A stretch of DNA of 64,000 nt from a virus. Taxonomy: Duplodnaviria; Heunggongvirae; Uroviricota; Caudoviricetes. Each line of letters begins with the position of its first letter. The stretch's first letter is position 1. The notes below the pieces were generated by a model. The model did not search any database. It worked only from the letters and a program-made list of their open reading frames with translations, and was not told where the DNA came from. The DNA is taken from IMG/VR virus record IMGVR_UViG_3300032007_000002; one strand, given 5' to 3'. The translations under genes and the position numbers were made by a program. Below are positions 19,863 through 63,671 of this stretch, piece by piece.

Positions 19863-19892
19863 TGTTTCTTCCTTTTGGATGTTCGTGCTATG

Positions 19893-20534
19893 TTACTTGG
19901 AGGCGGCTTCCGCCATCTGTTCCCGTGATTCCGCCTGGTTGATCTTCTCGAACACGGAGGCGTATTCACCGCGGGAGACCACGACAGAGTCGCGGAGGCG
20001 GAACCCTACCAGGCGCCCGGCCTGGTCCATGTACTTCGCGACCTGGATGTCGGTGTCGGACGGGGTGGCGATGCCCTGCGGGTGGTTGTGGACGATGTAG
20101 AAGGACGAGGCGTCCACGGAGGAGAGGAAGCTCCATACTGTGTGGACGGGGACCCCGGTGCCGGAGGCGGTGCCGAGGGACACTTCGCGGATGGCGAGGA
20201 TCCTGCGGGCGCCGTCGAGGGCGATGATGTACTGCGACTCGATGTTGCGGTACTTGAGGCGGGCCATCACCGCGGCGACTTCCCTGGCTCCCGTGAGGCG
20301 GAGGCCGACCGGGTCCAGGAGGAAGGTGCCGGACATCCTGATGAGCGCACGCACGACTTCGAGCTCGGAACCGGAGAACACTTCGTCCGGCGGGACCGGG
20401 TTGCTGCCACGGAGGTAGCCGACTACGCGCGAGTAGAACGCGATGCCGTAGGGACGGCATAGCACTTCCACGGCGGAGAGGTCCGCGGCGTTGTCTTCTT
20501 CGAGGTTTCCCATGTACTGTGCGAGGTAGCTCAT
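19893..20534 (-). CDS. radC: RadC-like JAB domain protein
   Basis: ESQYIIALD...VSLGT...IVHNHPQGIATPSDTD...AGRLVGFRLRDSVVV (HxH...S..D JAB motif). Confidence 0.85.
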   Translation of the reverse strand: MSYLAQYMGNLEEDNAADLSAVEVLCRPYGIAFYSRVVGYLRGSNPVPPDEVFSGSELEVVRALIRMSGTFLLDPVGLRLTGAREVAAVMARLKYRNIESQYIIALDGARRILAIREVSLGTASGTGVPVHTVWSFLSSVDASSFYIVHNHPQGIATPSDTDIQVAKYMDQAGRLVGFRLRDSVVVSRGEYASVFEKINQAESREQMAEAASK

Positions 20535-20609
20535 TTTCTTGTCTCCTTTGTAGCCCTGCTATGTGATCGCCGGGGAGGGCGCCCGGGTGTCTCCCGTGAT
20601 TCCGTCGGG

Positions 20610-20617
20610 TATAAACT
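20610..20617 (+). promoter_or_regulatory. TATAAACT motif (class C, late-promoter-like); also on the minus strand at 25858-25865 and 39915-39922
   Basis: Three copies, each just upstream of a gene lacking the class A leader; resembles the T4 late promoter TATAAATA. Confidence 0.45.
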
Positions 20618-20643
20618 GTAGCCGTATCTCCCCAGGGAACGAC

Positions 20644-21084
20644 ATGGAAGAAGAACAGATCGACTTCGAGAACATCGAGGAACTCGACGGCCTCACGGAG
20701 GCTATATGCCGGGGGAGCGACGACCCTGCGCTGAACGACGCAGTCGGGCAGGCGATGGGTGCCATATTCCAGGAAGGGGTGATGGACAAGGCCGGGAAGG
20801 TCCTCGCTGGTGTCGCCCTGGCTGCCGGGCTTGCGCACGGGGCCATAAACCACAAGGCCGCACATAACGTGCAGCCCAGGAACACGAAGACGTGCTCTGC
20901 GGTAGTGAAGAACGCGTGGAACAATCCTAAATACCAGGAACTAGAGGAAAAATACTTGCAGGAGGAGTTGCAGCGGCAGCAGGACCTCGTAAAGCAGGGG
21001 AAGCGCAAGTCCGTTGACGAGCAGGGCGCCTACGAGAAGGCACAGAGCAGGGCGATGTACGAACTCGCCTGCGGGTCTAAATAA
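20644..21084 (+). CDS. Hypothetical protein with acidic N-terminus and hydrophobic helix (possible virion-internal protein)
   Basis: The only plus-strand gene I support after 1.4 kb; MEEEQIDFENIEE...LTEA...IFQEG then LAGVALAAGLAHG. Confidence 0.6.
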   Translation: MEEEQIDFENIEELDGLTEAICRGSDDPALNDAVGQAMGAIFQEGVMDKAGKVLAGVALAAGLAHGAINHKAAHNVQPRNTKTCSAVVKNAWNNPKYQELEEKYLQEELQRQQDLVKQGKRKSVDEQGAYEKAQSRAMYELACGSK

Positions 21085-21772
21085 ATTTGTCGATTACGGA
21101 CTGAATGTCGCCCGCCGAGCCTGGAACGCTTTCCAGGCCCGTTTCGTATGCGGGGTCCGGGATGAGGAAGCCGACGGCCTGGGCGCGGGTGTTCGGGTCG
21201 AGCCAGAGCGTGAACGGGCAGATGTGCGGCTTGGTGGACGGGCTGACCTGGTTGTCGAACACCATCCAGGGGCCGACGAGCTCCCCGTGCTTCTCGATGA
21301 ACTTCTTCACGGGGATTTCGCGGTCCGCCGGGAAGTTGACGAAGCGCTCGGCCTTGACCGGGCGGCTGCCGTTGTGCGGGCGGAGCATGAGCGCCATGCA
21401 CGGGTAGGACTTGTCGGAGCGGTAGTGGCCGTTTACGAGGCTGACCGTCATGTGGCCCATCACCCGGAGCATGTCCATCGCGTTGGTCGCGTATTCCGGG
21501 GAGGTGTCCTTGCTGAACATGAGGACCTGGGTCTTCGCCATGGTCGCCATGAACGCGTCGGTGTTCGGTCCGGGCGGGAGGGAGACTATCACGCCCTTCT
21601 TTCCGTCGGTGGAGCAGACCGTGTAGTTGCGCTTGTCGTAGGAGATGCAGTGGATTGCATCTTCGAGGCGCGGGTCCGCGTCGGTGGAGAGTGTGGCGAG
21701 GTCCTTGATGAAGTCCTTGAGGCGGGAGACGCCTTTCGGGGAGCACCAGGGATCGTTAGTCTTCTTTATCAT
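21077..21772 (-). CDS. Hypothetical protein, weak beta-clamp-like N-terminal motif
   Basis: DPRLEDAIHCISYD...VCSTDGKK. Confidence 0.55.
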   Translation of the reverse strand: MIKKTNDPWCSPKGVSRLKDFIKDLATLSTDADPRLEDAIHCISYDKRNYTVCSTDGKKGVIVSLPPGPNTDAFMATMAKTQVLMFSKDTSPEYATNAMDMLRVMGHMTVSLVNGHYRSDKSYPCMALMLRPHNGSRPVKAERFVNFPADREIPVKKFIEKHGELVGPWMVFDNQVSPSTKPHICPFTLWLDPNTRAQAVGFLIPDPAYETGLESVPGSAGDIQSVIDKFI

Positions 21773-21932
21773 CTTTAACTCCTGCCGGGACGGGTTCCCA
21801 GAGAACTGTCAGTTCGGCCTTGACCCCTTCCGGCGTGATGTCGAAAGCGTCCTTGAAGCTGTCGACAATCCCGGCGGGAACGAGGCCGAGCACGGGGTCG
21901 TAGTGCTCGACCAGGAACTTGCAGCGTCTCAT
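21756..21932 (-). CDS. Small hypothetical protein
   Basis: 58 aa MRRCKFLVEH..., GGAGG RBS; hand-translated. Confidence 0.5.
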   Translation of the reverse strand: MRRCKFLVEHYDPVLGLVPAGIVDSFKDAFDITPEGVKAELTVLWEPVPAGVKDDKED

Positions 21933-21960
21933 GGGGCGCCTCCGTGAAATTTAGCAAAAA

Positions 21961-22116
21961 TTACTTGGATCTGTCCCGGGCGCACTTGATTACTTGCAGT
22001 CCGGGGTGTGTCTGTTTCGCGTCTTCCTTTGCGGACGCGGGGTCCGTCGCGGTGACGCGGACTGTCTCGCCCCCTTCCAGGGTGACGATGAACGGGAAAG
22101 TCCTTCCTTCCTTCAT
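21961..22116 (-). CDS. Small hypothetical protein (class A cassette)
   Basis: 51 aa MKEGRTFPFIVTL..., AAGGAGG RBS after a class A element; hand-translated. Confidence 0.6.
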   Translation of the reverse strand: MKEGRTFPFIVTLEGGETVRVTATDPASAKEDAKQTHPGLQVIKCARDRSK

Positions 22117-22187
22117 GGTGCCTCCTTTTGGCTGTCCCGGCTATGTGACGGCCGGGGGTGTCTGCAGGGGGTTCCCCGTGATTCCGG

Positions 22188-22295
22188 TCAGCGGTGGCCG
22201 AAGAAGAACCCGGCGACCATGCCGAGGCCGATCAGCATCAGCACGATCTTGAATATGAGGTCGTCGAGGGAGAAGTCTTTGTTATGTTTCCGCAT
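22188..22295 (-). CDS. Small membrane peptide
   Basis: MRKHNKDFSLDDLIFKIVLMLIGLGMVAGFFFGHR directly after a class B variant. Confidence 0.4.
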   Translation of the reverse strand: MRKHNKDFSLDDLIFKIVLMLIGLGMVAGFFFGHR

Positions 22296-22338
22296 ATAGG
22301 GAAATATAACAAATTTTCTCCTCAACCTTACGAAAAAC

Positions 22339-22521
22339 TTACGAATCATACTCCCGCCCCATGCAGCGGCAGGAATACTCCACCTTCTCGCAGATTTCGC
22401 GGGTGGCCACGCCGTCGCGGTAGAGCCGCTGGGTGAAGCGCTTGTCCTCCTCGTCGAGGAAGTAGAAGCCGCGCTCGCGGCAGTGGTCGCATACGATGTC
22501 CCAAACTTTCTCGAAGTCCAT
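22339..22521 (-). CDS. Hypothetical protein
   Basis: 60 aa, operon packing. Confidence 0.55.
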   Translation of the reverse strand: MDFEKVWDIVCDHCRERGFYFLDEEDKRFTQRLYRDGVATREICEKVEYSCRCMGREYDS

Positions 22522-22530
22522 GGTCGCATC

Positions 22531-22845
22531 CTATTCCTTGAGGACCTTCTTTCCTGCGAGGCGGTTGTATGCCTGCCAGGCGAGAAGCTCGTTGTTGACT
22601 CGTTCCTGGCTGTCCTCCTTGCCGAAGACGTCGAGGCTCGTCGGCCAGGGCTTGCCCTTCGTGTCGTTCCACACGAACGCGCAGTCGCGGTAGAAGAACG
22701 GCGGCTCGAAGAGGAGCCATGCGCGTTTGTCGGACTTGCGGACTACGCGCACGCCTTCCAGGGGCCAGTCCTTGTGGATCTTGCTGACTTTGAACATGCC
22801 GGAAACTTTGATGTAGTTGAGAAGTGTCTTGAATTGCGTTGCCAT
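22531..22845 (-). CDS. Hypothetical protein (class A cassette)
   Basis: Element plus AAGGAGA RBS. Confidence 0.7.
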   Translation of the reverse strand: MATQFKTLLNYIKVSGMFKVSKIHKDWPLEGVRVVRKSDKRAWLLFEPPFFYRDCAFVWNDTKGKPWPTSLDVFGKEDSQERVNNELLAWQAYNRLAGKKVLKE

Positions 22846-22929
22846 GTTAGGTCTCCTTGTTGCTGGTCCCTGTATGTTACGGAGGGGGCGCCTGGGGTGG
22901 CGCCTCCCGTGATTCCGGCGGATAGCCCG

Positions 22930-23262
22930 CTACGGGACGTGTTTTTTGCCGTTCGTAGCGCCGTTTCGGTATTTTTTATTACGTTTCGGGCGTTGACCGG
23001 GGTATTTCTGCCGGATTTCCCTCGCGATGGTCGAAATTGGCTTGTGGCGCTCGTCGTGCATCTCCTTGACCCAGGCATAGGTCTTGACGATGAAGTAGAG
23101 GGCGTGGCCCACGACCGCGGAGAGGACGAGGTAGGCGATGGTCCCCTTGAGGGTCGGGCCCTGCTGCGGTGGGTAGATCCAAAGGAGGGGTCCCACGATG
23201 AAGCAGCCCGCGCAGAGGATTGCGATGAAGTTGGAAGCGATGGTCATGATTTTTGCGAGCAT
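22930..23262 (-). CDS. Membrane protein
   Basis: Two transmembrane segments and a basic tail. Confidence 0.6.
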   Translation of the reverse strand: MLAKIMTIASNFIAILCAGCFIVGPLLWIYPPQQGPTLKGTIAYLVLSAVVGHALYFIVKTYAWVKEMHDERHKPISTIAREIRQKYPGQRPKRNKKYRNGATNGKKHVP

Positions 23263-23272
23263 GAAAAATCCT

Positions 23273-24076
23273 TTACTTTTGGGAGTTGCTGATTGCTTCG
23301 ATGATTGCGGCGACGGTCTCGCGCTTTCCGCCGGAGTAGTTCTGTTCCTGGTAGCCGCCGGGGAGGGGCATGATGCCCGCTATCATCCTGGCGCCGTTTT
23401 CCGGGCAGAACATGATTTCGCCGACGGTCACGTTGCAGATGCTCGGGGTGCGGGGGTCTTCTGCATCGGGGGTGATGGTGTAGAAGTAGCCCATGTCCTG
23501 CGTACCGAACCACCTGGAAATGAAGTCGGTGATGCGGTAGAGCGCAGTCGGGTCGAAGCGGGCGCCGGATGCGGGTTGCAGGCTGAACTTTTCCGGGGTC
23601 ATGTCCTTGAAGAGCACTTCGAACGCGTCCGGGTAGTGGACGGTGTAGCCGCCGCGGACCTTGTAGAAGTCCGTAAGCATCGCGCTGTTCATCGGGCGGT
23701 TGTCGAGGGCGCCCTTGAACGGGACGGTGACTTCGCCTTCCTCGAACTTGGAGAGGGCGTAGGTGATGAGGTCGGGAGAACCTACGCAGAATTCGCGCAC
23801 CTGGCGATCGATGAGGGCGCGGACGATGTTGTGGGCATACGGGCCGAAGAACTGCAAGGCGAGGACCTTGGTGCCGTCGGAGCACTGCATAGTCATGAGG
23901 TCGCCCTTGCGGGTGTAGTGGACGGCGTAGAGGTGCTGGCGGTCATCCTTGCCCTGCGCGTTGGTGCAGAAGCCGTGCACGGAGTAGAGGAAGCTGCGGA
24001 GCTTCTTGTGCTGTGCCTGGCCGGCGAGGTCGGGGATGTTGCCTTTTTCGTTGAGGATGTAAACGGACTTTGACAT
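23273..24076 (-). CDS. Beta-clamp-like protein (class A cassette)
   Basis: Start MSKSVY; DDRQHLYAVHY...MQCSDGTKVL...YPDAFEV...FDPTAL...GIMPL resembles DnaN middle and C-terminal motifs. Confidence 0.55.
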   Translation of the reverse strand: MSKSVYILNEKGNIPDLAGQAQHKKLRSFLYSVHGFCTNAQGKDDRQHLYAVHYTRKGDLMTMQCSDGTKVLALQFFGPYAHNIVRALIDRQVREFCVGSPDLITYALSKFEEGEVTVPFKGALDNRPMNSAMLTDFYKVRGGYTVHYPDAFEVLFKDMTPEKFSLQPASGARFDPTALYRITDFISRWFGTQDMGYFYTITPDAEDPRTPSICNVTVGEIMFCPENGARMIAGIMPLPGGYQEQNYSGGKRETVAAIIEAISNSQK

Positions 24077-24154
24077 GGTGTCTCCTTTTCTGATATTCCC
24101 CGTATATGACGGAGGGGACCCGTGAGGATCCCCTTCCCGTGATTCCGTTGATAG

Positions 24155-24226
24155 TACACCCGTCCGGACTCGAACCGGAATTATCGGCTTCGGGGGCCGA
24201 TGTGCTATCCATTGCACTACGGATGC
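24155..24226 (-). tRNA. tRNA-Arg(CCG)
   Basis: Cloverleaf GCATCCG...TGGATAGCAC-TCGGC-CCCCGAA-GCCGA...GGTTCGAGTCC-CGGGTGT-A; C at position 33; followed by CTA rather than CCA. Confidence 0.85.
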
Positions 24227-24233
24227 GTCAACC

Positions 24234-24506
24234 TTATTTGTCCCTGGACGGGCAGTATGCCGGGTGGACGGTGAGCCATTCGTACTCCGGGACCCTCTTC
24301 GCGAGAAGTGCCGGGTGGGCGACTGCGGCCTCCTTTCCGTCCTTGCTGCAGATTGAGGCGATTTTCACGTTCTTCAACTTGCGCAGCTGCATGAGTTCTG
24401 TGGCCTTGGCCTTGGCGCCTTCGACGGCGGACGCTTCCACCTGCCCGGCGCAGAGTCGGAGTTCCTTTCCTCCGATTACCGTAGTATAGTTCACGGTGAA
24501 GATCAT
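24234..24506 (-). CDS. Hypothetical protein
   Basis: Start MIFTVNY after AAGGAGA. Confidence 0.6.
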   Translation of the reverse strand: MIFTVNYTTVIGGKELRLCAGQVEASAVEGAKAKATELMQLRKLKNVKIASICSKDGKEAAVAHPALLAKRVPEYEWLTVHPAYCPSRDK

Positions 24507-24787
24507 AGGGGTCTCCTTAGTTTTTCGATTGATGTCTCGACCTGGGAGGCGACGCGTTCCAGCACGTCGGAGAGCTGGTTGTACTCGTCCGTGACGATGT
24601 ACCAGGTCTTGAAGGGGGTTTTCTCGTTTTCCCGGTAGAGTTCGATGGCGGGGAGTTCCACCTTGCCGTCGTTGCGATACCCTGCGATGAGTTTCACTCC
24701 GGGGCGGTAGAAGTCCATGTCCTCGTGGCCTTCGCGGAGGTCGGCGAGTGCTACCTTGATGTCTCGATAAAGGGTGTTGTCTGCCAT
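24503..24787 (-). CDS. Hypothetical protein
   Basis: 94 aa between tRNA genes. Confidence 0.6.
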   Translation of the reverse strand: MADNTLYRDIKVALADLREGHEDMDFYRPGVKLIAGYRNDGKVELPAIELYRENEKTPFKTWYIVTDEYNQLSDVLERVASQVETSIEKLRRPL

Positions 24788-24802
24788 ATATGTTGGGGGT
24801 AG

Positions 24803-24876
24803 TAGCGCATACCGGGGTCGAACCGGTGATTTTCGGAATGAGAATCCGCTGTCCTGGGCCTCTAGACGAATGCGCC
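24803..24876 (-). tRNA. tRNA-Glu(CTC)
   Basis: GGCGCAT-TCGTCTAGAGGCCCAGGAC-CGGA-TTCTCAT-TCCG...GGTTCGACCCC-ATGCGCT-A; followed by CTA. Confidence 0.85.
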
Positions 24877-25851
24877 GTGTTCAATAAAAGTTAAGAGTTT
24901 GTTAAATTCTGTTTGAACCTTTGTTTTGCTGGCCTTGCCCATGTCTTTAATGACGTATGGTGTGAAACCAGCTTTGGTGATTTCTGCGATTTTAATTCTG
25001 TCGCGGTTTTGGATGCAAGCCAATGAAGATTGTGTTGATATTTGCTTGTAGTGCCATGCGCCGTTCCATAATATAGCAATTTTCTGATCTAATAGGATGA
25101 TATCGGCATCCCAACCGTTAAAAAGTTGTAAATTGTTCTTTACATTGTTGAACCGGGTTTTGCATAACTCACAGAATGCGATTTCATTTTTGCTTCGGCG
25201 GTTGGTTGACTGTTGGGCAACACTTTTAAGGGCGGCAATGCGTAGCTTTTCCCTGGTTTGCTGGCTGAGGTTTGCGGCAACAATGGAATGAACGCAGGTT
25301 TTGCAGTAGCCAAGTTTTGAGCGTGGGTGTATTGGCTTTCCGCAATTTTTACATTGCCTCGTTGGACGAGGTAATTGTTTGCGTTTGTAGTGTTTTCTAC
25401 ACAGCCCGGTTTTATTGTCCTTACATAATGTCGCCCCGCATATATAGCAGTGTTTCAGTGGTTTGGGTGATTGAAAATTGTTCTTTCTTGCAAGTGTGCG
25501 GTATAAAGTGCTTGCTCGTTTTTTGTTAGACTCTTCTGTTGGTGTTCTGCGATTTGCACATGTCCTGGAACAGAAAAACTTTTCCTTTTTAGAAAACTCG
25601 CGCTCGGTACATGTTATGGTAAATGTTTTGCCGCAGTTTGCACAAGATACGATATACTCATGCCTGGGCAATGTGTTATTTTTGTTATACAGTGTGCATT
25701 TGCGCGAACCGCCCTTTTTAAGCGATTGGATAATTTCATCGTGCTTTGGGTTTTGGGGGCAAAGGCGGCAATGCGCATTGAACTTACCGCGGGTGGTAGT
25801 AAATACTTCTCCGCAATATTTACAGCTATATGTAGAAATTTGATTATTCAT
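24862..25851 (-). CDS. Free-standing putative homing endonuclease (CxxC Zn-ribbons plus Vsr/DUF559-like nuclease domain)
   Basis: Many CxxC pairs including FCSRTCAN; C-terminal SKNE...WDADIILLDQKIAILWNGAWHY...RDRIK...GFTPYVI; visibly AT-rich; inserted between tRNAs. Confidence 0.7.
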   Translation of the reverse strand: MNNQISTYSCKYCGEVFTTTRGKFNAHCRLCPQNPKHDEIIQSLKKGGSRKCTLYNKNNTLPRHEYIVSCANCGKTFTITCTEREFSKKEKFFCSRTCANRRTPTEESNKKRASTLYRTLARKNNFQSPKPLKHCYICGATLCKDNKTGLCRKHYKRKQLPRPTRQCKNCGKPIHPRSKLGYCKTCVHSIVAANLSQQTREKLRIAALKSVAQQSTNRRSKNEIAFCELCKTRFNNVKNNLQLFNGWDADIILLDQKIAILWNGAWHYKQISTQSSLACIQNRDRIKIAEITKAGFTPYVIKDMGKASKTKVQTEFNKLLTFIEHGAFV

Positions 25852-25863
25852 ACATATAGTTTA

Positions 25864-25939
25864 TAGCGGGAGCGGGACTCGAACCCGCAACAACTCACGG
25901 GTTATGGGCCCGGCGAGCTACCAGTTGCTCCATCCCGCG
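25864..25939 (-). tRNA. Initiator tRNA-fMet(CAT)
   Basis: Unpaired C1:U72, three consecutive G-C pairs in the anticodon stem, loop CCCATAA, TTCGA T-loop; no encoded CCA. Confidence 0.85.
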
Positions 25940-25983
25940 ATAAACTACATGGCGAACTATCGCTAACTGAAATATAGCAAAGT

Positions 25984-26319
25984 TTAGAAATTCTGTACAG
26001 TCGTGATGCCGTGTTTTTTCAATTTTTCCTCGTCGAACATGTCCTCGGGTTTGAGGCCGTGCCTGTCCATGACCATCTTGTTGTGCTGGGCCTTCGCCAT
26101 TTCCTTCGCGAAGAAGGCTTCGGTCTCCTTGGTGGCCGGGATCTTGATTCCGCTGTCCGGGCCGCCGAAGGAGTGGGGCCTGGTGTGGTGGAAGGACGGG
26201 TCCCCGACGAAGCGGATCGTGACGGACATGCCGTCCGGCTTGAACATCTTCATGGTGTCGTGCAGGAACGTTTCCCGGCGTTTCATCTTTTCCTGCATCT
26301 TTTCTTCCGTCGTGCTCAT
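25984..26319 (-). CDS. Hypothetical protein
   Basis: Start MSTTEEK coupled to the upstream stop. Confidence 0.6.
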   Translation of the reverse strand: MSTTEEKMQEKMKRRETFLHDTMKMFKPDGMSVTIRFVGDPSFHHTRPHSFGGPDSGIKIPATKETEAFFAKEMAKAQHNKMVMDRHGLKPEDMFDEEKLKKHGITTVQNF

Positions 26320-26729
26320 TAGATGCCCTCCTTCGCGAGGCGTTCGGCGATGGTGCCTTTCTTTTTGAGGTTCTTGTCGCGCTTGGCAACCCAGCGTGCA
26401 TAGTATTGGTTCAGCTTGTCGGCGAACTCCTGGCACTTTTCCTTCTTGGCGAAGTAGGCGTCGATGAGGATGTGGGCCGGGCCGTTGTGGGACACGTAGG
26501 CATGGCAGAAGGCGCCGGGCTCGATCTCTTCGAGCATCTCCACCACCTTGACCTGGCGGCTGTGGAGCGTACCGCTGATGCGGAGCTCGTCGGCGATGCC
26601 TTCGAGGGACATGCCTTCGGCGTAGGTGCCGGGTCCCGCGATTTCGTAGAGTTTCTTGTTGAGGCCGGGGAAGTTCGCCTTGACGACTTCCTGGGGCGCC
26701 TCGATTACGCAGAAATACTTGTCGTTCAT
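26319..26729 (-). CDS. Hypothetical protein (class A cassette)
   Basis: Element plus RBS. Confidence 0.7.
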   Translation of the reverse strand: MNDKYFCVIEAPQEVVKANFPGLNKKLYEIAGPGTYAEGMSLEGIADELRISGTLHSRQVKVVEMLEEIEPGAFCHAYVSHNGPAHILIDAYFAKKEKCQEFADKLNQYYARWVAKRDKNLKKKGTIAERLAKEGI

Positions 26730-27308: not shown

Positions 27309-27310
27309 GG

Positions 27311-39009: not shown

Positions 39010-39092
39010 AATCGAATCTCCTTTTGATATGCCGTATATGTGAAGAGGGGGACCCGATTGGATCCCCCTCCCGTGATTCCGTCACGTTGTCC

Positions 39093-39890
39093 CTAGCGGC
39101 GTACCGCGACCGGGATTTCGTCCCAAAGGGCGAAGATTTCGCCGTCGGCGCCCCTTCTGCGCATTTCGCCCATGGTGCAGGGCGGCGGGTTCACGAAGAG
39201 GTTCACCGCGTCGGTCATCGCCTGCGGTTCAGTTCCGGGGGTGAACGAGAAACGCTTGAGGCGGTCGGGGTTCTGCTCGTCGTAGTGCTTTGACTTGATG
39301 AGGGACGAGAAGTATTCCTGGCCGAGGTCGTTCTTGACCACGGGGCCGCCGAGGTCGAACACGTTGGTCCCGTTCTTGTCGATGTAGCGCGGGCCTTCGC
39401 CTGGGGGTTGGATGAGCACGGAGTCCTGGTCGTACTTCCCGCACATTTCCTTCGCGAACTGTTCCATCTTGGACCATTCCACGGGCTTGCCGTCGCGGTA
39501 ATGCGCGGGGATGACGAAGGAGGTTTCGCCGTTCGCAGTCTTCGGCGGGTTGGTCTGCATGTCGCGGTAGCCGCCATAGACCACGATGTAGGAAAGCCCC
39601 TGGGCCTTGATGTCGGCGAGAAGCTCATGGCGCTTTTGGTAGTTTTCCGCTTCCGAGCGTTCGACTCGGTCCGCAGAGAGGATAATCATGCCGTCCTTGC
39701 CGTGTTGGATGATGCGGTCGACGGTCGCTTCGGTGAGCGGTTGGAGCCTTGAATGGTTGGATTCGTAACCGTACATGGCCATCGGTTCGCGGTCGCGCAC
39801 ACTTTCGATATACGCGGAAAGTTCCTGGCCCATGTCGGGGTGGGCGCCCATCATGCGCACCCTTGCGTTAAGTTCGTTTGCTGTGGACAT
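39093..39890 (-). CDS. Conserved myophage-type hypothetical protein (DUF3293-like)
   Basis: LTEATVDRI...ILSADR...EN..R..L...I...GLSY..V.GGY...ETSFVI...KYDQDSVL pattern. Confidence 0.65.
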   Translation of the reverse strand: MSTANELNARVRMMGAHPDMGQELSAYIESVRDREPMAMYGYESNHSRLQPLTEATVDRIIQHGKDGMIILSADRVERSEAENYQKRHELLADIKAQGLSYIVVYGGYRDMQTNPPKTANGETSFVIPAHYRDGKPVEWSKMEQFAKEMCGKYDQDSVLIQPPGEGPRYIDKNGTNVFDLGGPVVKNDLGQEYFSSLIKSKHYDEQNPDRLKRFSFTPGTEPQAMTDAVNLFVNPPPCTMGEMRRRGADGEIFALWDEIPVAVRR

Positions 39891-40013
39891 ATATGTTAAT
39901 CCTCTGATTTCAATAGTTTATATCGTCCGGCACTGAAATATAGCAACTTCCGGTAGCCACCGTATGTGACCGGGGTGGCGCCTCGGGTGGCGCCTCCCGT
40001 GATTCCGACGGGC

Positions 40014-45104: not shown

Positions 45105-45190
45105 TTGTGTCTCCTTGTTGATATTCCCCCTATGTGAACGGGGGAGGCGCCTTTTACACCTCCCCCGTGATTCCAGGAGATACAAATTTT

Positions 45191-53249: not shown

Positions 53250-53780
53250 TTAGGACTTTGAAGTCTTTACGGCGTAGATTTGGCGCCATCCGTTGCTGTC
53301 GACAAACGAGATGTATTGTTCGCCGTTGGTTTGCAGCTTGTCAAGGTATTTTGCCTTGATGTCGTTGAAGAGTTCCATGCAATACTCTTCATCGCCGATG
53401 CGGATGATGGCGGTGTCCGGTAAGGTTTCGCCGTTGTTGTAGTCGGTCGTATGGCAGAGGGCATAGTTCGCGTTGTCGCGGGCTTTCTTGATTTCGCCAT
53501 CAACATGTGTGCTGAACTTTTCGAGAACACAGTTCTCGATATGTTCGCGCAGCTGGCGCGTTACCGGGAAGACGATGGAACGCGGGATGTCGTCGCGCAT
53601 TTCCTTCGGATAGCTCACGTAGTAGCCGTTCGGGCCATTACATACGCAGAGCTCGCGGATTATGATCTGGTCGTTGAGGACGACGGTTGCGAGGGCGACA
53701 ACCTTGCCCACTGCGGTCTTGGGAAGGGCGCTGATGGTGACGGCGGTAACTGCGAGGCAGTCGAAAGCAGAATTTTCCAT
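53250..53780 (-). CDS. spoVG: SpoVG-family nucleic-acid-binding protein with C-terminal extension (class A cassette)
   Basis: ALATVVLNDQIIIREL.V.NGPNGYYVSYP...SIVFPVTRQLREHIENCVLEKF. Confidence 0.75.
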   Translation of the reverse strand: MENSAFDCLAVTAVTISALPKTAVGKVVALATVVLNDQIIIRELCVCNGPNGYYVSYPKEMRDDIPRSIVFPVTRQLREHIENCVLEKFSTHVDGEIKKARDNANYALCHTTDYNNGETLPDTAIIRIGDEEYCMELFNDIKAKYLDKLQTNGEQYISFVDSNGWRQIYAVKTSKS

Positions 53781-54673: not shown

Positions 54674-54717
54674 GGTATCTCCTTTGATGCTCCCCCTATG
54701 ATACGGGGAAAGGAAAA

Positions 54718-55242
54718 TTATTTTTCCTCCCCGTGATTCCGCTGCCACGGCCAGGTTCTGTGGGTAAGGCCGAATTTCTCGAAGTCGTTGAGGTTTTCGC
54801 CCTTCTCGATGGCCTCCACCATCTCCGCGAGGCCGGTTTCCGCATAGGTGACGTTGTGGTCTATCATCCTCTGTACGGACTCCTTGTCGCTCTTCCCGTC
54901 GAGATGGTAGGAATGAGCGCAGAGCGTGAAGTGGTTGAGTTTCCCGTCGGTGCAGTAGTCGTGGTCGAGCTTGCGGATTACCGACACGTAGACGCTGTGC
55001 CTGCTGAAGGGCTCGATGACGAGCTCGATGCGGGGGTAGTAGCCGCGGTCGCCGCGTTGCCAGTTCCCGCCCTTCACGATGCGGTGGAAGTGCAGGACGA
55101 ACTTCTCCTTGCGGTTCAGGTGGCGCCCGCTGATTTGGTTGAGGTCGGGGTGCTTTTGGCACATCATGAGTTCCGGCCACGGATCGCCGCTGATGAGCGG
55201 TTCGAGAATTTTGCGCTGGGGAAGTGTAAAGCGTTCGGGCAT
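54718..55242 (-). CDS. Hypothetical protein (class A cassette; stop inside the next element)
   Basis: Element plus RBS; ends RNHGEEK. Confidence 0.7.
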   Translation of the reverse strand: MPERFTLPQRKILEPLISGDPWPELMMCQKHPDLNQISGRHLNRKEKFVLHFHRIVKGGNWQRGDRGYYPRIELVIEPFSRHSVYVSVIRKLDHDYCTDGKLNHFTLCAHSYHLDGKSDKESVQRMIDHNVTYAETGLAEMVEAIEKGENLNDFEKFGLTHRTWPWQRNHGEEK

Positions 55243-55311
55243 GTCGTATCTCCTTTTGATGTTCCCCCTATGTTACGGGGGAGCGGAACCGGGGAGCGCT
55301 CCCCGTGATTC

Positions 55312-55776
55312 CTAGATCCATGCGTTGCCGTCGATGTCGTCGGCAATTTTCTTGCACCACAGAAGGTGGTCGGCGAAGTCCGCGACGCTTTCGGTGAGGG
55401 AGCAGGCGTCCTGCGGGGTCTCGATGGTGGCCTTGCCCGTGAGACGGGTCTCGGCGAACACGTTGCGGGAACCGCCTGGCACCGAGGGTTCGCTGTCGAG
55501 CTTGACGGAGTGGACGGCGTATTCCACCTCGTTCGGGTTCGAGGACGGGCGGAAGGTGATTTCGAGACGCGGGTATTCGTGCGGGGTCCCGATGTTGTGG
55601 CCGTTGGTGCGGTTCTGCGGGAGGCAGATGCAGCTGAACTTTCGGACACCGCCGGACGGGGACTTGACGGCGACGAGTTCGCCCGTGCCCCAGTGGTCGG
55701 TGGCCACCTTGTTGAACACGCGGGTGTTCTTTCCGGCGGTTTCAAAAGCGCTCTGAATGTTCGGCGTAAATTCCAT
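55312..55776 (-). CDS. Hypothetical protein (class A cassette)
   Basis: TAG stop shares a base with the GGAATC box. Confidence 0.7.
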   Translation of the reverse strand: MEFTPNIQSAFETAGKNTRVFNKVATDHWGTGELVAVKSPSGGVRKFSCICLPQNRTNGHNIGTPHEYPRLEITFRPSSNPNEVEYAVHSVKLDSEPSVPGGSRNVFAETRLTGKATIETPQDACSLTESVADFADHLLWCKKIADDIDGNAWI

Positions 55777-57152: not shown

Positions 57153-57266
57153 TTACTTGCGCTTCTTCCCGTTCTTGTGTCGGGGTTTGAGTGTCTTCGC
57201 AAAGTCCGTGACCTTGACGAAAGCCATGTCTTCGAGAAACTGCTTTACTTCTGCGGGAACTATCAT
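57153..57266 (-). CDS. Small basic peptide
   Basis: 37 aa MIVPAEVKQFLEDMAF...KKRK, AAGGAGA RBS; stop abuts an element; hand-translated. Confidence 0.5.
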   Translation of the reverse strand: MIVPAEVKQFLEDMAFVKVTDFAKTLKPRHKNGKKRK

Positions 57267-57327
57267 CTTGTCTCCTTTTTGGAAAATTAAAAATTTAAAA
57301 TGATGGTGCTCGGGTGAGCACCGATTT

Positions 57328-57861
57328 TTAGGCTTCCCCGTAGGGGGTTTCTTGGTCGCGGAGTTCGTTCAGTGCCCAAATGGTCACTTCCTGCGCATCC
57401 ATGACTTGTGTTTCTTTGGACTTCAAGTCAACGAGGGCGTCAAGGCCGTCGCAGGTGAACACGAGGACGGAACGGGGTACGCGCCTGTCGAAGATTTCGA
57501 TGCGGTTCGTCACCGCGTGGGTCTTGCCGTCGGGGTCGGTGAAGTCCATCTTCTGCGTGACGGGTTCCACGCGGAACTCGAAGCGGTGCTTCAAGAGGAG
57601 CATCATGAGTTCCTGCAAGTTGGTGAGGTTGAGGTCAACCTCGACCATGTCGAAGCTGTGGGTGCATCCGCAGTTGTCCACGGAATACTTCCCGTCGCCC
57701 GGCTCGATCAGCTCCTTGCTGCAACCTTCGTCGTCGCAGTAGGATTCTGTCGTGCGCAGGGCTTCGGCCATGCCCTCTTCCGGGGTGTCCTTGAGGTCGC
57801 CGACGAGGCCGGGGATGCAGCTTGCATCGTCGCAGTAGTTGATTACGCCAAACTTTTTCAT
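57328..57861 (-). CDS. Hypothetical protein (class A cassette)
   Basis: Element plus RBS. Confidence 0.7.
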   Translation of the reverse strand: MKKFGVINYCDDASCIPGLVGDLKDTPEEGMAEALRTTESYCDDEGCSKELIEPGDGKYSVDNCGCTHSFDMVEVDLNLTNLQELMMLLLKHRFEFRVEPVTQKMDFTDPDGKTHAVTNRIEIFDRRVPRSVLVFTCDGLDALVDLKSKETQVMDAQEVTIWALNELRDQETPYGEA

Positions 57862-57906
57862 TTCGTATCTCCTTGTTGGTGCTCCCCCTATGTGATAGGC
57901 GGGCGC

Positions 57907-58281
57907 CTAGACGGCCACCCTCCCGTGATTCCGCTTCTGCTCCGGGGTCTCGTCCTCCACCCAATACTGGTGGTCGAAGTCCTGCTCCTTGAAGTAAACG
58001 AGGTTCATCGCAGTCCTTACCTTGTGGCCTTCCCCGTCCGTGTAGCTCACGGATGCGGACATCTTGCCGAGACGGGCGCGGAACTTTATGCCGTCCTCGG
58101 AGAGCTGCTTCGTCGCCTTGCCGAGCCATTTCCTGACGGGCTTCATCGCGGTTTCTATGTCGGGCGCCTTCTTGCCCCCGCCAAGGCAGGAATAGCTTTC
58201 ATGCCCGTCCACGAACTTCTTCAAATGGGTGGTGTAGTGCGCGGGGGAGTGATGATGGATGACTTTCCATGCCATAGACAC
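57907..58281 (-). CDS. Hypothetical protein (stop inside the next element)
   Basis: Ends RNHGRVAV. Confidence 0.6.
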   Translation of the reverse strand: MSMAWKVIHHHSPAHYTTHLKKFVDGHESYSCLGGGKKAPDIETAMKPVRKWLGKATKQLSEDGIKFRARLGKMSASVSYTDGEGHKVRTAMNLVYFKEQDFDHQYWVEDETPEQKRNHGRVAV

Positions 58282-58284
58282 CCC

Positions 58285-58530
58285 CTACGCGATATATCCG
58301 GCCGTTTTGAGGTCGGCATCCGCGTGCATCGCGTTTTGTAGGTCAAAGAACTTTCTGTTGGCTTCCACAAATTCCTTGCCCCATACGTTGCCGTCGCCGA
58401 GGTTTACACCCCCCGCAGTGACTACGTGGGCGAACTTGTGCGGATTGCCCTCGAAGGGATCCTTCCAAGTCCTTACGCGGATGCTCCCGCCGAGTTCCTT
58501 CGCCTTCTTTCGGTAATCCTTCAAATCCAT
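58285..58530 (-). CDS. Hypothetical protein (class A cassette)
   Basis: Element plus RBS. Confidence 0.7.
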   Translation of the reverse strand: MDLKDYRKKAKELGGSIRVRTWKDPFEGNPHKFAHVVTAGGVNLGDGNVWGKEFVEANRKFFDLQNAMHADADLKTAGYIA

Positions 58531-58670
58531 AAAAATATCTCCTTGCTGGTATGCCCCCTATGTGATCGGCGGGGCGCCTGCCCATATCCTTCCCGTGATT
58601 CCGGCACCCCCAGGGGAGCAGAAAACGGGGAGAGGGACTTGCCCTCTCCCCACCAACCGGGAGTAAAAAA

Positions 58671-59240
58671 TTATTTATCGAGCCTGTCGAGCTTGACTGC
58701 TTCATCGAAACTCAATTTTCCGAAGCGGCCCGAGACGGGGGTGAGACATACCGCGTGTTTCGTCTCGAACTCAATTCGGCAGGCTTCTCTGAGGGAAAGG
58801 ATGCCGATATCCTCGTATTCGCCCTTCTCGTTCTTTTGGCGGACGAGGAACTGCTTGGCGGGCTGGCTTGTGCGGAGCTTTTCGACGACCTTGCGGATGC
58901 GTTCCGGCAGGTCGGCAGGGTTGTCGCACTCGAACTCGTCAACGACACTCTCGAACGGCTTGCCCTCGTAGAACTTCACATGGAAGTAGGAGCTGGTTGC
59001 GCATACGCCCCAAATGATTTCGATGAACACGCCGTTCCACACGAAACGGGCGACCACGTCGTTCCCGTCCACGTCGCAGAGGACGCCGAGGGTGCCGGAA
59101 GCGCAGTTCGTGTTGTCGAACGGGCGGTGCATTACGAGACCGGGAAATTCGTGGAGGAGCCAGTCCTTGAAACCCTTGCGGGCTTCGGAAAGAAGGTCAA
59201 GTGCCTTGGCGAGCTTGTCGTCCCAATATTCTTTTTGCAT
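58671..59240 (-). CDS. Hypothetical protein (class A cassette)
   Basis: Element plus RBS. Confidence 0.7.
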   Translation of the reverse strand: MQKEYWDDKLAKALDLLSEARKGFKDWLLHEFPGLVMHRPFDNTNCASGTLGVLCDVDGNDVVARFVWNGVFIEIIWGVCATSSYFHVKFYEGKPFESVVDEFECDNPADLPERIRKVVEKLRTSQPAKQFLVRQKNEKGEYEDIGILSLREACRIEFETKHAVCLTPVSGRFGKLSFDEAVKLDRLDK

Positions 59241-59309
59241 ATCGTATCTCCTTGTTGATGTTCCCTCTATGTTATCGGCGGGAGCGGCCGGATTGTAAAG
59301 CCCGTGATT

Positions 59310-59412
59310 CCGAAATGCGCAATATATTTCCTATTTTGCGAAAATATACTGCACAGGTGAGCAGAAAAATCTATTTCTGACACCGAAATGCGCAATATAT
59401 TGCTTATTTTGC
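59310..59412. repeat. 30-bp AT-rich direct repeat
   Basis: CCGAAATGCGCAATATATT(T/G)C(C/T)TATTTTGC at 59310 and 59383. Confidence 0.75.
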
Positions 59413-59420
59413 CGTCAAGA

Positions 59421-59873
59421 TTAGAGCCATTGGGCCAATACCTTGCTCACATCCTGCAAGCAGGCACTCTTCTCGGCGGGGAGAGAGAAGTCGATGGACA
59501 CGAACGGGGTGTTCCACTTGTCGCGGGACACGAAGATCGTGATGCCGTCCTCGTCGGTGCAGTCTATATGGAGCAGCGCTCCCCCGAGGTGGCCTGCGGC
59601 CAGGTCGGCGATTGTATCGGCGAGCTTACCCGTCACGGGGTTGTCGTGGTGCGGGCAGATGTCCACGACCGCGTCGGCGGGGTTGAAGATGACGAGGATG
59701 TCTGGGTTCCCGTAACGCTGGGACAGCTCGGAAATGGCGGTGGCGACGGCTTCCGGGGTGACCTTTGCCTTGTCACTCGCCGGGCGGATATGGGATATGA
59801 TTGTATCGCCGTTGTCGCGGACTGCGAGGGTTCCACGGCATCCGAAACTAAAATCTGCAATGACCTTTTTCAT
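59421..59873 (-). CDS. Hypothetical protein (class A cassette)
   Basis: Element plus RBS. Confidence 0.7.
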   Translation of the reverse strand: MKKVIADFSFGCRGTLAVRDNGDTIISHIRPASDKAKVTPEAVATAISELSQRYGNPDILVIFNPADAVVDICPHHDNPVTGKLADTIADLAAGHLGGALLHIDCTDEDGITIFVSRDKWNTPFVSIDFSLPAEKSACLQDVSKVLAQWL

Positions 59874-60006
59874 CGTAACTCCTTGTTGGTGCTCCCCCTA
59901 TGTGACGGGGGTGGCGCCTTCGATCCGGGTTTCCGTGATTCCGTCGGCCCGGAAATTAAAAAATTTGGGAGGGGTGTCACCCCTCCCCCAACGGAGATTA
60001 AAAATT

Positions 60007-60567
60007 CTACGCGGTTTTTTTGAGCTGTTCGCGGATGTCTTCCTTGATGTCCTCGATGTCAACATCGGTGACGCTTTCGAGGTCCACGCCATCCGTGCGG
60101 TCGTAGAGTTCGATATATTCGGAGGTGATGGAGGGGGTCGCCGCGATGTCGTGACCGTCTACCTCGATGGACACGGAGTCCGCGTAATACTCCTGCACGT
60201 TGTCGATGAACGAGCCTTCGACGACGACGAGGTCGGAGTAGTTGCTGCGGATGTCACCGCCGAGGTGGATCTGCAATGCGCAGTAGTCGTTGCCCTTGTA
60301 GGTGAAGTCGAAGCCCTGCAGGTCGTTGGTGCAGTTGCCGCCCCAGTTGTAGGTGTTGAACGACTTGATTTCATCCACCTTGAGCAGTTCCTGGATGCGG
60401 TCGGTGAGGGCGCAGAAGGAACGGCTGCGGAAGAGCCACTGCACTGCGTGGGTGAGCTTTTCGTGGCAGGTGAGGCTTTCGAGGAATTTGCCCGTGGGTA
60501 CATAGACGGAGCCTTCAATCTTTTCGTTGCAGGCATCGGCGAGGTTCTGAAGAGTGGTAAAACGCAT
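60007..60567 (-). CDS. Conserved-type phage hypothetical protein (class A cassette)
   Basis: NTYNW...DLQG...QIHLGGDIRSNYS pattern; start moved to the second Met for RBS spacing. Confidence 0.7.
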   Translation of the reverse strand: MRFTTLQNLADACNEKIEGSVYVPTGKFLESLTCHEKLTHAVQWLFRSRSFCALTDRIQELLKVDEIKSFNTYNWGGNCTNDLQGFDFTYKGNDYCALQIHLGGDIRSNYSDLVVVEGSFIDNVQEYYADSVSIEVDGHDIAATPSITSEYIELYDRTDGVDLESVTDVDIEDIKEDIREQLKKTA

Positions 60568-60646
60568 AAGCATCTCCTTTTGGTTGGTGCTCCCCCTATG
60601 TGACGGGGGAGGCTCCTCTGGTACGGGTTCCCGTGATTCCGTCTGT

Positions 60647-61087
60647 TTATTTTCCTTCCGCGACCATCTTCACGTTTCTGATTAGGTGTTCAAGTGTGCA
60701 GTCTTCGCGGATTACCACCCCTTCGGGGGTCGCCACGTCGAACGAGTTGATGTCGAGGTTCGGCGAGCAGTAGATGTCGCTGATATGGTGGTGGGAGCTG
60801 ATGCGCACCATGTCCACCTTTGGCGCGTTGTCACCGAGCCAATGGACTTCTATGTCGGGGTTGACCTTTCCCGAGCAGAAGACGAGTTCCCCGTTGATTT
60901 CGATGTCCACTTTGAGCGCTTCCGACACCCTCTTGTAGAGGCCGAAGCCGGAGCGGTCTATGATGGCCGGAGCGGTGCGCAGTTCCGTGAGCTTGTGCTG
61001 CAATTCCGCGAGGTCGCAGAGGGCGAGCATTTCGGTCTTGCTTTCTTCGTTGATATATCTGTTGTTGGCGAGGTTCTTGGCAGCCAT
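60647..61087 (-). CDS. Hypothetical protein (class A cassette)
   Basis: Element plus RBS. Confidence 0.7.
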   Translation of the reverse strand: MAAKNLANNRYINEESKTEMLALCDLAELQHKLTELRTAPAIIDRSGFGLYKRVSEALKVDIEINGELVFCSGKVNPDIEVHWLGDNAPKVDMVRISSHHHISDIYCSPNLDINSFDVATPEGVVIREDCTLEHLIRNVKMVAEGK

Positions 61088-61212
61088 GTCGTATCTCCTT
61101 GTTGGTTGGTGCTCCCCCTATGTTACGGGGAGGGCGCCCCCGAACCTGGGCGCCGTGATTCCGTGGCCCTAGCGGGGTGCAGATGAAGGGGAGGGTTTAC
61201 CCCTCTCCCCGC

Positions 61213-61818
61213 TTACTTGGGAGTTTCTATGTTGACTGCTGCTTCGAGCGACTTGAAAAACCCCGCATGAAGGCATTTAACCCTGCCCCAATCCTTGCCC
61301 TTGTTGCGTCCACGATACGGCATGCGGAAAAATTCAATCCCGTCATATTTTACATGGGTGTATCTATGGTCAAACGCCACCCATCCATTCTTGACAAAAC
61401 GCCATCGGTCGGCGAAGGTTACAAATACACGCGGCTTGTTCGAGTATGCGCTGTTTTCGTCATAGAACGGGGATTGTTCCAGTTCGGTGGTCCATTCCTT
61501 TAAGTACGGGTTTTGCCAAAAATAGCTTTCGTTTAATGTTGCCGTGAACGTGATGAGGTTAAACCCGAGCTTCTTCCCGAGCGCGAGAACCCCCTCGCGT
61601 GTTTTCTTGCTGTCTATGCAGTCAACGCCAACTTCGCATAGTCTGTTCAGCGCGTCAAATATGGACTTGGGGAGCAGAACCTTGTCCGTGTCAGGATCGA
61701 CTATCTCGGGGTCTTCCAATAGCTTGGTTACTTCCTGCATGTCATAGCCCATTGTCTTGTGCAACGGGTCATACGTATTCTTCCATGCAATCAAGTCAAA
61801 CAGTTTGTCGCTCTTCAT
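61213..61818 (-). CDS. Hypothetical protein, lower GC (class A cassette)
   Basis: Element plus RBS. Confidence 0.7.
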   Translation of the reverse strand: MKSDKLFDLIAWKNTYDPLHKTMGYDMQEVTKLLEDPEIVDPDTDKVLLPKSIFDALNRLCEVGVDCIDSKKTREGVLALGKKLGFNLITFTATLNESYFWQNPYLKEWTTELEQSPFYDENSAYSNKPRVFVTFADRWRFVKNGWVAFDHRYTHVKYDGIEFFRMPYRGRNKGKDWGRVKCLHAGFFKSLEAAVNIETPK

Positions 61819-61989
61819 ATCGTATCTCCTTGTTGGTATTCCCCCTATGTTATCGGGGTGGCGCCTGCAGTCCCCAGGCCCGTGATTCCGGCTTTCCCTA
61901 GCCCGTTACTCGGATCTTGTACATAATCCTCCAAATAGCTGAAACGAGGGGAAGGGCACCCGCCCATCCCCGATTTTGAAAATTAAAAT

Positions 61990-62247
61990 TTACTTTTTCA
62001 TCATTGCCCTCTTCTTTGCTTCGGCGCGGATGTCCTTAACGCGGGCGACGACCTTGCCCTTGTTGTCCTCATAGACTTCCGTTGCCTTGTTCACTGCGGT
62101 GTCCCCCGCGTTGCCGAGGGCATCGTTGACCACGTTCGCGATGGCGTGGCCTGCCGCGTCCTTGGTTTCCTTGCTCGCGAAATACGCGGTTCCCGCGATG
62201 AAGGCCACGATGACCGCGAGGATGAAGAGCTTGATGAGCTTGAACAT
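61990..62247 (-). CDS. Membrane-anchored protein
   Basis: Start MFKLIKLFILAVIVAFIAG after AAGGAGA. Confidence 0.65.
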   Translation of the reverse strand: MFKLIKLFILAVIVAFIAGTAYFASKETKDAAGHAIANVVNDALGNAGDTAVNKATEVYEDNKGKVVARVKDIRAEAKKRAMMKK

Positions 62248-62263
62248 GGTGTGTCTCCTTTTG

Positions 62264-62506
62264 TTATGGTAAGATGTTGGTGCTGTCGCCGAACCATATC
62301 CGGTTCGGTCGGTAGTGGGTCCCGTCCTGCTCGGTCGTTCCCGTCTGCATGGTGACGCTGAGCTTTTGGCCGGGGAAGATTTTCCCGATGCGGTCGAGGA
62401 AGCGGGCCTTGACCTCGGGATAGTGCTCGCCGCACACGGAAAGGTTCTCGGTGTCGATGAGGCCGGCGGTGGGGTGGTTGGAAGCGGAAATAGTAAAAAC
62501 GACCAT
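62264..62506 (-). CDS. Hypothetical protein (class A cassette)
   Basis: Element plus GAGGT RBS. Confidence 0.6.
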   Translation of the reverse strand: MVVFTISASNHPTAGLIDTENLSVCGEHYPEVKARFLDRIGKIFPGQKLSVTMQTGTTEQDGTHYRPNRIWFGDSTNILP

Positions 62507-62666
62507 TGCATTACCTCTTGGTTGGTAGTCTCCCTATGTTATCGACGGTTCCGCCCGTTTTGTAAATCCCGTGATTCCCCGATTATAACATTTTTTATTT
62601 AACATAACATTCCGAAATGTTAGGATCAAGAAAAATGTTATGAAAAGGGGGCTTTGCGCCCCCTAG

Positions 62667-63101
62667 CTAGGCCTTGATTACGTAGGTGGGGCTGTCCACG
62701 TTCACCTTGTAACACTTGACACGGATTTTCGCCGTGGCCTGCGGGAAGCACTCCTTGATGACGGCCACGACCTTTTCAAGGTCATCCTTGATTTTGTTGC
62801 CGTAGTTGTGCCCCTCGTTTTCCGTAATGCAGTTGGGGCAGCTTTGGCAGTCGCCCGCAATTTCCATCGGGTGGGCATAGGCATAGAAGCGTTCGCCGAT
62901 GAAACTTGGGGATGTGCGGGAAATTCCGAGGTTGGTTCCCTCATGCAGCGCTGCCGTTTTAAAGCCGTCAATATTGGCGGCCTTAATCTTCTTGCAACAT
63001 TCGAGCCACTGTTCCTCGCCGTTTCCGAGTACGTAGCCACGGCCCCATTCGTAGATGCCGTCGATGAGGATTTGGAAGTTCGCGAAAGTCTTAAACATCA
63101 T
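62667..63101 (-). CDS. Hypothetical protein (class A cassette)
   Basis: YEWGRG...YAHPMEIAG motif; element plus RBS. Confidence 0.7.
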   Translation of the reverse strand: MMFKTFANFQILIDGIYEWGRGYVLGNGEEQWLECCKKIKAANIDGFKTAALHEGTNLGISRTSPSFIGERFYAYAHPMEIAGDCQSCPNCITENEGHNYGNKIKDDLEKVVAVIKECFPQATAKIRVKCYKVNVDSPTYVIKA

Positions 63102-63206
63102 ATTGTATCTCCTTGTTGGTGCTCCCCCTATGTGATCGGGGTAAGGAAGGGGGCCTGCACCCCCGTGATTCCGGCGCCGCAGGGCAAAGGGGAAGGCCCC
63201 GAGGGG

Positions 63207-63590
63207 CTAACCCCTCGCGGCTTCCAAGGCGGCTTCGCGCTTGGCCTTGCGGGCGGCCAAGTCGTCGCGGTCCCAATGGGAGTGGATCCATTCCTTCGCC
63301 TCGTCCACATTCTTGCAGTGGATGCTGAACTCGGGGCTGAAAATCTCGCTCCAATGGGTGATGTAGCCCTCGTGCTGTTCCACTTCCGAGCGGAAGATCG
63401 AGACGCAACCCCATTCAGTGTCCCAATAGATAGTGAAGCGGTTGTGGTCGTGGTCCTTGAAGTGGACTTCGGACTTGTACTCCATGTGCCCGTACTTGTT
63501 GTAGGAACGCTTCGGCTTGCTCATTTCGGCGGCTTCGCCGATAGAAGCGATAATGTTTTCAAATTGCTTGGAAAGAGAAACTTTTGCCAT
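63207..63590 (-). CDS. Hypothetical protein (class A cassette)
   Basis: Element plus AAGGAGG RBS. Confidence 0.7.
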   Translation of the reverse strand: MAKVSLSKQFENIIASIGEAAEMSKPKRSYNKYGHMEYKSEVHFKDHDHNRFTIYWDTEWGCVSIFRSEVEQHEGYITHWSEIFSPEFSIHCKNVDEAKEWIHSHWDRDDLAARKAKREAALEAARG

Positions 63591-63671
63591 ATTGGCCTCC
63601 TTGTTGGTTGGTATTCCCCCTATGTGACGGGGGTAAGGAAGGGGGCCTGCGCCCCCCGTGATTCCGTGGGG

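Follow-up and report, generated by a model that had tools for sequence, protein, structure and literature searches.

A one-strand array of repeated promoter-like elements heading recombining gene cassettes in a T4-like rumen jumbo phage

Repeated promoter elements that precede ORFans have been described among T4-like phages, namely the PeSL and PmSL elements of RB49/phi1, T4/PST and KVP40/nt-1 (PMC2839356, PMC4122927), with RB49 and phi1 carrying approximately 52 PeSLs each (PMC2839356). A promoter box of another kind is known from phage Mu, whose Mor protein acts together with sigma-70 from a 16-bp binding site centred at -43.5 (PMC4390567). The subject of this analysis is a bipartite element repeated along 64,000 nucleotides (nt) of DNA (IMG/VR record IMGVR_UViG_3300032007_000002; this whole stretch is referred to as the window), derived from a rumen jumbo phage of approximately 430 kb that belongs to a T4-like clade. 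The element heads a long series of gene cassettes on one strand, and its overall best explanation, to which we assign a probability of approximately 70%, is that of a phage-specific promoter that also acts as a recombining cassette unit.

Exact copies of the first box of the element, GGAATCACGG (box 1), were found 61 times in the window, all on the minus strand, compared to a chance expectation of 0.24. Fifty-seven of these (19923-63665) belong to the cassette array (19863..63665, minus strand), confirming the 57-copy, one-strand bipartite element reported by the initial annotation of this DNA. Box 1 is followed by a second box, T(A/C)ACATA (box 2), the distance from the start of box 1 to the start of CATA being 40 bp in 47 copies, 41 bp in eight, 39 bp in one and 38 bp in one; the near-constant spacing had been recognized previously, using other end points, as 33-36 bp. 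CATA and a G located 8 nt after its C are invariant among the 57 copies, a T is located 3 nt 5' of CATA in 56, and the spacer between box 1 and CATA is variable in sequence. In the copy preceding ftsK, for example, box 1 lies at 19923..19932 and box 2 at 19889..19895 (both minus strand), while the first element of the window (63612..63665, minus strand) has the 41-bp spacing.

A ribosome-binding site (RBS) and an ATG follow within approximately 30 nt of the predicted transcription start in 56 of the 57 elements, supporting the translation-start role initially proposed. The exception is the element at 40006, and that at 45174 heads a 6-codon open reading frame (ORF) first. Predicted leaders measure 15-29 nt, with a median of 19. 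According to the gene caller used here, cassettes hold one gene in 37 cases, two in 14 and three in 3, with none called in 2; these genes are mostly small, as had been stated, apart from FtsK (486 aa) and one ORF of 474 aa. The stop codon of the upstream gene falls between -3 and +8 nt from box 1 in 18/57 copies. The GC hairpin that had been noted in the spacer is a tendency only, without a fixed structure: folding compared to shuffled sequences gave a mean z of -1.9, with z < -2 in 22 and z > -1 in 17 of the 57 copies, the position of the hairpin is variable, and no U-tract follows it. Terminator-like hairpins are situated directly 5' of nine of the 57 elements (four of 600 control windows), and the genes of those cassettes therefore need the element.

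The array was found to run beyond the window, the limits of 19863-63665 given initially holding for the copies within it. A near-identical contig (10793/10794) carries 18 further copies in the 9.6 kb past the window end, and a close strain adds ten more and reaches the array start; counted across these two strains, the full array comprises about 85 copies over approximately 58 kb, extending approximately 14 kb past the window end. It opens with a copy lacking an RBS (L352:5892). Elements resemble their neighbours more closely than they do distant copies (spacer 0.46 vs 0.38, leader 0.71 vs 0.57, p<0.001), as would result from local conversion or duplication. The inventory of the initial annotation had missed the other four exact boxes. 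Three of these are tandem RBS-less copies in a gene-poor stretch (14043..14237, minus strand; boxes at 14084, 14159 and 14237) with 38-bp spacing, which are kept in L075 and L091 and could be decoy binding sites or promoters of non-coding RNA. The fourth is a lone box 1 at 17167 inside coding DNA (17126..17167, minus strand), with GTCAC at the normal spacing and no CATA, kept in two other strains.

The geometry of the element strongly supports the promoter role suggested for it initially, with the register being inferred, and we consider it very probable that the element is a promoter. With the C of CATA set at -12, a pyrimidine-purine (YR) step was found at +1 in 56/57 copies, compared to 0-15 of 57 at other offsets except +3 nt (50/57), and 79 of 86 copies of this motif (type A) from other contigs have a YR step in the same register. 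A register with T(A/C)ACAT as -12 to -7 was rejected, as -1 would then be an invariant G. On this numbering, box 1 of the ftsK copy is predicted at -52 to -43, its CATA at -12 to -9 and its +1 at 19880, and the first element of the window has a predicted +1 at 63612. The resulting layout is of the activator type, with a -10 present, a -35 absent and an upstream box at fixed distance; the -35/-10 pair of host sigma-70 with a 17-bp spacer was not found, since the sequence varies at the -35 positions and the -10 consists of CATA. RNA polymerase would melt the DNA at CATA and start 12 nt after its C, and box 1 would stand in for the -35 element, bound by a phage factor. Each element would join a phage-specific promoter to a leader of approximately 19 nt and an RBS, such that each accessory gene or small group of genes would have its own start.

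Three related phages (G001, G002 and G003) were found to carry homologous arrays that differ in motif and agree in geometry. The motif of G001 (type B) consists of CCGTG and, at exactly 41 bp, CAnCGT, with A at -11 in 25/30 copies and the YR step in 26/30, the 30 copies including four non-type-B matches. That of G002 consists of CTAWCGGG and GGATGGGATGCC, then CA (A at -11 in 27/29, YR in 22/29), and that of G003, with 68 copies, of GACTGG and CGGGRCTGC, then TATT (68/68 and 57/68). The A at -11 and the placement of the YR step recur in all three, with upstream boxes that begin between -48 and -56. In one copy from G003, TTGACA-17-TATATT surrounds the inner box in the predicted register and so anchors that register. 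Two further promoter-like classes are common to the four phages, namely TTTGCTATATTT, probably read by the host primary sigma, and ATAAACT, which precedes structural genes in the manner of T4 late promoters; the motif AAACCTAGTT is rare in the window and forms no evident class in G001-G003. Between phage types, the element and the sigma factor at the array end (described below) both diverge, with the other two promoter classes shared. The 29 genes shared with G001 keep their overall order (tau 0.61) but no more than 4/28 adjacencies. Of the genes in the array region, RadC, FtsK and the array-end sigma alone were detected in every one of the four types. A literature search, incomplete in coverage, found no paper on this clade or motif.

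Comparison of the window with 15 close strains gave 42 events of at least 100 bp, reduced to approximately 28 by manual removal of repeats. Twelve of these approximately 28 differences run from element to element at matched offsets (13/30 in a coarse script count), where our estimate for random breakpoints is approximately 0.1% per event; breakpoints inside the element in relatives, which the initial annotation had named as a check on shuffling, are thus present. In several other events the replaced segment is an ORF, beginning at the ATG and ending shortly ahead of the following box; gene-boundary indels or mobile inserts make up most of the remainder. The cassette at 54686..55312 (minus strand), for example, is absent in L013 (junction +56) and L110 (junction 0), and L362 carries three window cassettes with 92-95% identity in a different order. 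Gain, loss and reordering of cassettes at the elements are shown by these events. Crossovers lie at offsets of -8 to +9, +34-39, +46, +54-62 and +68-72, and such varied points favour homologous rather than site-specific recombination; we regard it as highly likely that the shuffling is driven by homology. The copies share two homology blocks (box 1, and CATA to the RBS), through which homologous recombination would delete, insert or swap whole cassettes while always leaving a complete promoter, and would probably let whole arrays drift to new motifs per lineage.

Exchange between motif types was identified in G001, where two type-A elements lie within the type-B array in a 2395-bp block that is 93.6% identical to a type-A array. 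The block ends at elements on both sides: on the left, the incoming gene is connected via the leader to a type-B element, and on the right, six box 1 bases survive ahead of the next type-B element. A single type-A cassette is also present in G002 (L146:9345-10670), encoding a GmrSD_N/HNH protein between two genes of the EcoRI-methylase family. A back-joint of 30855 to 29610, such as a minicircle would give, was seen in two RNA assemblies, available as contigs only, and is also explained by strain gene order. Other insertions were observed in the array: L355 has three, of 146-155 bp, at three array sites, two of them inside elements and not identified as one mobile element, and L075 has a 1291-bp insertion at window position 21960 and lacks the HNH gene between the tRNAs at 24893-25859, the two L075 differences being mobile-element events unrelated to the repeat.

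A gene at the array end (17602..18342, minus strand) encodes a divergent sigma-70-family factor of 246 aa, shortened in region 3, which is the candidate reader of the element. Its ORF has region 2 and region 4 domains, matches RpoS structures by profile (E 1e-10) and was assigned to PHROG 351, and its structural model (pLDDT 80) gave sigma-32 as the top Foldseek match (E 5e-6). It is homologous to the sigmas of G001-G003, with 23-34% identity between phage types, is the only recognizable regulator in all four types, and its homologue closes the array in G001 and likewise in G002. The likeliest reader would be the host core polymerase with this sigma, perhaps together with a further activator; judged from co-occurrence and elimination, the odds that the sigma takes part in reading the element are about even. 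If the phage sigma does read the element, the array would be second-wave and not the early-gene array initially proposed. Motif A is retained in a strain whose sigma is 56% identical, and in another, at 33% identity, three of four copies show a related box with unchanged spacing; the sigma tree fits a motif that follows the sigma as well as one that follows the lineage. No element was seen in the sigma neighbourhoods of L345 and L356, which may lie away from their arrays. More tentatively, the system may be a lineage-private promoter code, in which a fast-evolving phage sigma reads up to approximately 85 cassette promoters with an upstream box placed approximately 12 bp farther out than a normal -35, and in which recombination serves both to exchange cassettes among lineages and to convert the entire array to the resident code.

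Several points weigh against a phage-specific promoter read by this sigma. The sigma gene lies behind an element without a clear host-type promoter of its own in this phage, creating a chicken-and-egg problem unless read-through or virion delivery is assumed, although a sister of the G002 sigma does have a host-type promoter. In G003 a distance of 34 kb separates the sigma from the array, TATT resembles a host -10 and a second sigma is present; region 2.4 residues do not map cleanly onto the -10 sequences, there is no T at -7, and box 1 lies approximately 12 bp too far upstream for ordinary binding by sigma region 4. Copies within one array are not independent, so that agreement across the four motifs is the stronger argument, and selection for whole-gene indels inflates the number of breakpoints at gene boundaries. 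The RNA data consist of contigs only, the promoter role being deduced from sequence geometry.

Some of these difficulties would be eased if the element were an activator-dependent promoter read by the host primary sigma, with a phage or virion-injected protein binding box 1 in the manner of Mu Mor or T4 MotA and the array-end sigma serving another class. This avoids the chicken-and-egg problem, the -10 of G003 resembles the shared TATATT and one copy there overlaps a full TTGACA promoter, and each box contains a TCAC, the two lying 33 bp from one another, as they do in the L342 variant. However, CATA without a T at -7 is a poor -10 for a primary sigma and no activator family was found among the approximately 110 window ORFs scanned. 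This explanation is less likely than the preferred one but a strong rival to it. That a host alternative sigma or host activator reads the element, making it usable by any phage of this host, is improbable; perfect type-A copies do occur in G001 (two) and G002 (one) among arrays of other motifs, but those of G001 are recent imports in one block and give no evidence of reading by a host factor. Phages with the other promoter classes in common have different element motifs. The matches listed in a scan of bacterial genomes were scattered single ones, with no Fibrobacter among them, and do not bear on the host.

Explanations other than transcription initiation were also weighed. A processing, stabilizing or translation-activating signal on long polycistronic transcripts would account for the close coupling to the RBS and upstream stop codons, the hairpin bias and the continuous RNA contigs over the region, but not for a fixed, helical-turn-like spacing without conserved structure, nor for the A-11/YR geometry in four motifs; with terminators upstream of some copies and RBS-less copies in existence, an RNA-level role is quite improbable. 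The gain and loss of whole cassettes at elements whose spacers often fold would also suit an attC-like site used by a cassette recombinase, the genes being expressed from promoters farther upstream. The spread of crossover offsets (-8 to +72) and a spacing that is fixed where the hairpin is optional argue against it, as does the scarcity of attC core sequences (RYYYAAC in 2/57 copies, GTTRRRY in 0/57). No tyrosine recombinase (PF00589) was found in the window ORFs or in G001 and G002, records that may be fragments. This explanation is very improbable and already largely refuted; of the recombination role initially suggested, the element as a homology block at which cassettes are gained and lost is retained, and site-specific action is not. 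The phage-specific promoter that doubles as a recombining cassette unit is the preferred explanation.

The phage origin of the DNA, as first annotated, is supported. Window proteins were found on contigs of up to 432,572 bp and in cattle and sheep gut samples from 14 studies, and the relative G003 encodes a gp23-type (T4-type) major capsid protein and a terminase, no capsid gene being seen in the window itself. The host is probably Fibrobacter, on weak evidence: one sequence in the cluster of the G003 sigma was deposited as Fibrobacter sp., and TTTGCTATATTT is common in that genus. Pfam scanning identified five families among 95 ORFs, the array genes mostly being without known function, and an Rfam scan gave tRNAs only. 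The last element-headed gene, directly upstream of the sigma, encodes an FtsK/SpoIIIE motor (18402..19862, minus strand), and the other element-headed genes include RadC (JAB; 19893..20534, minus strand) and a SpoVG-domain protein (53250..53780, minus strand). A SAM lyase, of a known anti-restriction family, is encoded at 39093..39890 in the cassette 39035..39960 (minus strand), which carries three promoter-like motifs (the element, TTGCTATATTT at 39946 and ATAAACT at 39921) and is absent element-to-element in L063 (junction +46). Genes for tRNA-Arg, -Glu and -Met with an HNH gene (24862-25851) lie inside the array (24154..25940, minus strand), with a shared-class promoter motif at 25980, and a 146-aa gene on the plus strand (20611..21084) stands behind a T4-late-like ATAAACT motif. 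Genes with R2K ATP-grasp and NADAR domains were found downstream of the array (11092-12030 and 16263-17264). RNA contigs from three sheep-rumen libraries, which may include DNA, are continuous over the region including the array end, ftsK and the sigma gene. Regarding a possible long terminal repeat, DNA contig depth was 14.5 vs 18.1, without a clear doubling.

Just upstream of the array start and outside the window, a CRISPR array with 36-nt repeats and approximately 30-nt spacers (15-18 repeats matched) was identified at L352:1664-5475, and also in L353 and L355. The 894-aa gene beside this array has a weak Cas12f/TnpB zinc-finger match (E 0.002), and the two may form a phage-encoded type V system. 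Similar genes of 892 and 835 aa occur in G001 and G002, that of G002 beside its own CRISPR array. The L355 spacer at 3413 agrees in 28/30 positions with L346:8610-8639, a stretch of this phage type's cassette array, which suggests targeting between related phages. A second CRISPR array lies inside the G001 array region (L129:7850-8420, corresponding to G001 27.8-28.4 kb), with a neighbouring 426-aa gene that is TnpB-like by eye.

These results extend PeSL-type shuffling to a jumbo phage clade, with many strain-level events and with transfer between promoter types visible at base resolution. How a regulator and dozens of its sites change in concert could be studied with this array. Should each sigma prove to be matched to its motif, the clade would supply several promoter systems that are orthogonal and of unusual geometry. 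The array is also a catalogue of approximately 100 genes that probably act in host interaction, in a phage whose host is likely a key cellulose degrader of the rumen.

Among known systems, fixed upstream boxes at approximately -30 to -50 with a -10 and no -35 are shared with Mu Pm/Mor (PMC4390567), the Mu late promoters with C (PMC2582627) and T4 middle promoters with MotA. Those systems have few sites rather than one per gene, box 1 is not a dyad, and no Mor or MotA homologue was seen in the window. Integron attC arrays likewise contain co-oriented single-gene cassettes with a repeated junction, but the present array has no attC cores and variable crossovers, no integrase was found in the ORFs searched, and each cassette appears to have its own promoter. 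SPO1 places its accessory or takeover genes under host-sigma promoters, whereas a private motif with non-standard geometry is found here. Several promoter classes and phage-encoded sigma-70-family factors in a gp23-capsid jumbo clade are in keeping with the phage sigma cascades of SPO1 gp28 (PMC13401047) and group 2 jumbo phages (PMC7824862). The closest likeness is to PeSLs, which combine a repeated promoter, a G/C stem-loop (here a tendency of the spacer) and an RBS upstream of ORFans in the variable region of a T4-like phage, with abutting upstream stops, some 50 or more copies, and recombination between copies that gains, loses and swaps cassettes. The initial annotation had considered motif, spacing and copy number to be unlike PeSLs; the copy number is not exceptional beside RB49 and phi1, and the precedent covers more than had been allowed. 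PeSLs have the host sigma-70 -35/-10 consensus (PmSLs a Mot box and -10), whereas this element has no -35, a CATA -10 and a box at -52 to -43, and lacking that defining host consensus it works like a PeSL but is not one. New in comparison to PeSLs are the private motif and geometry, a single continuous co-oriented array of approximately 58 kb, the wholesale replacement of the motif between lineages and a candidate sigma factor.

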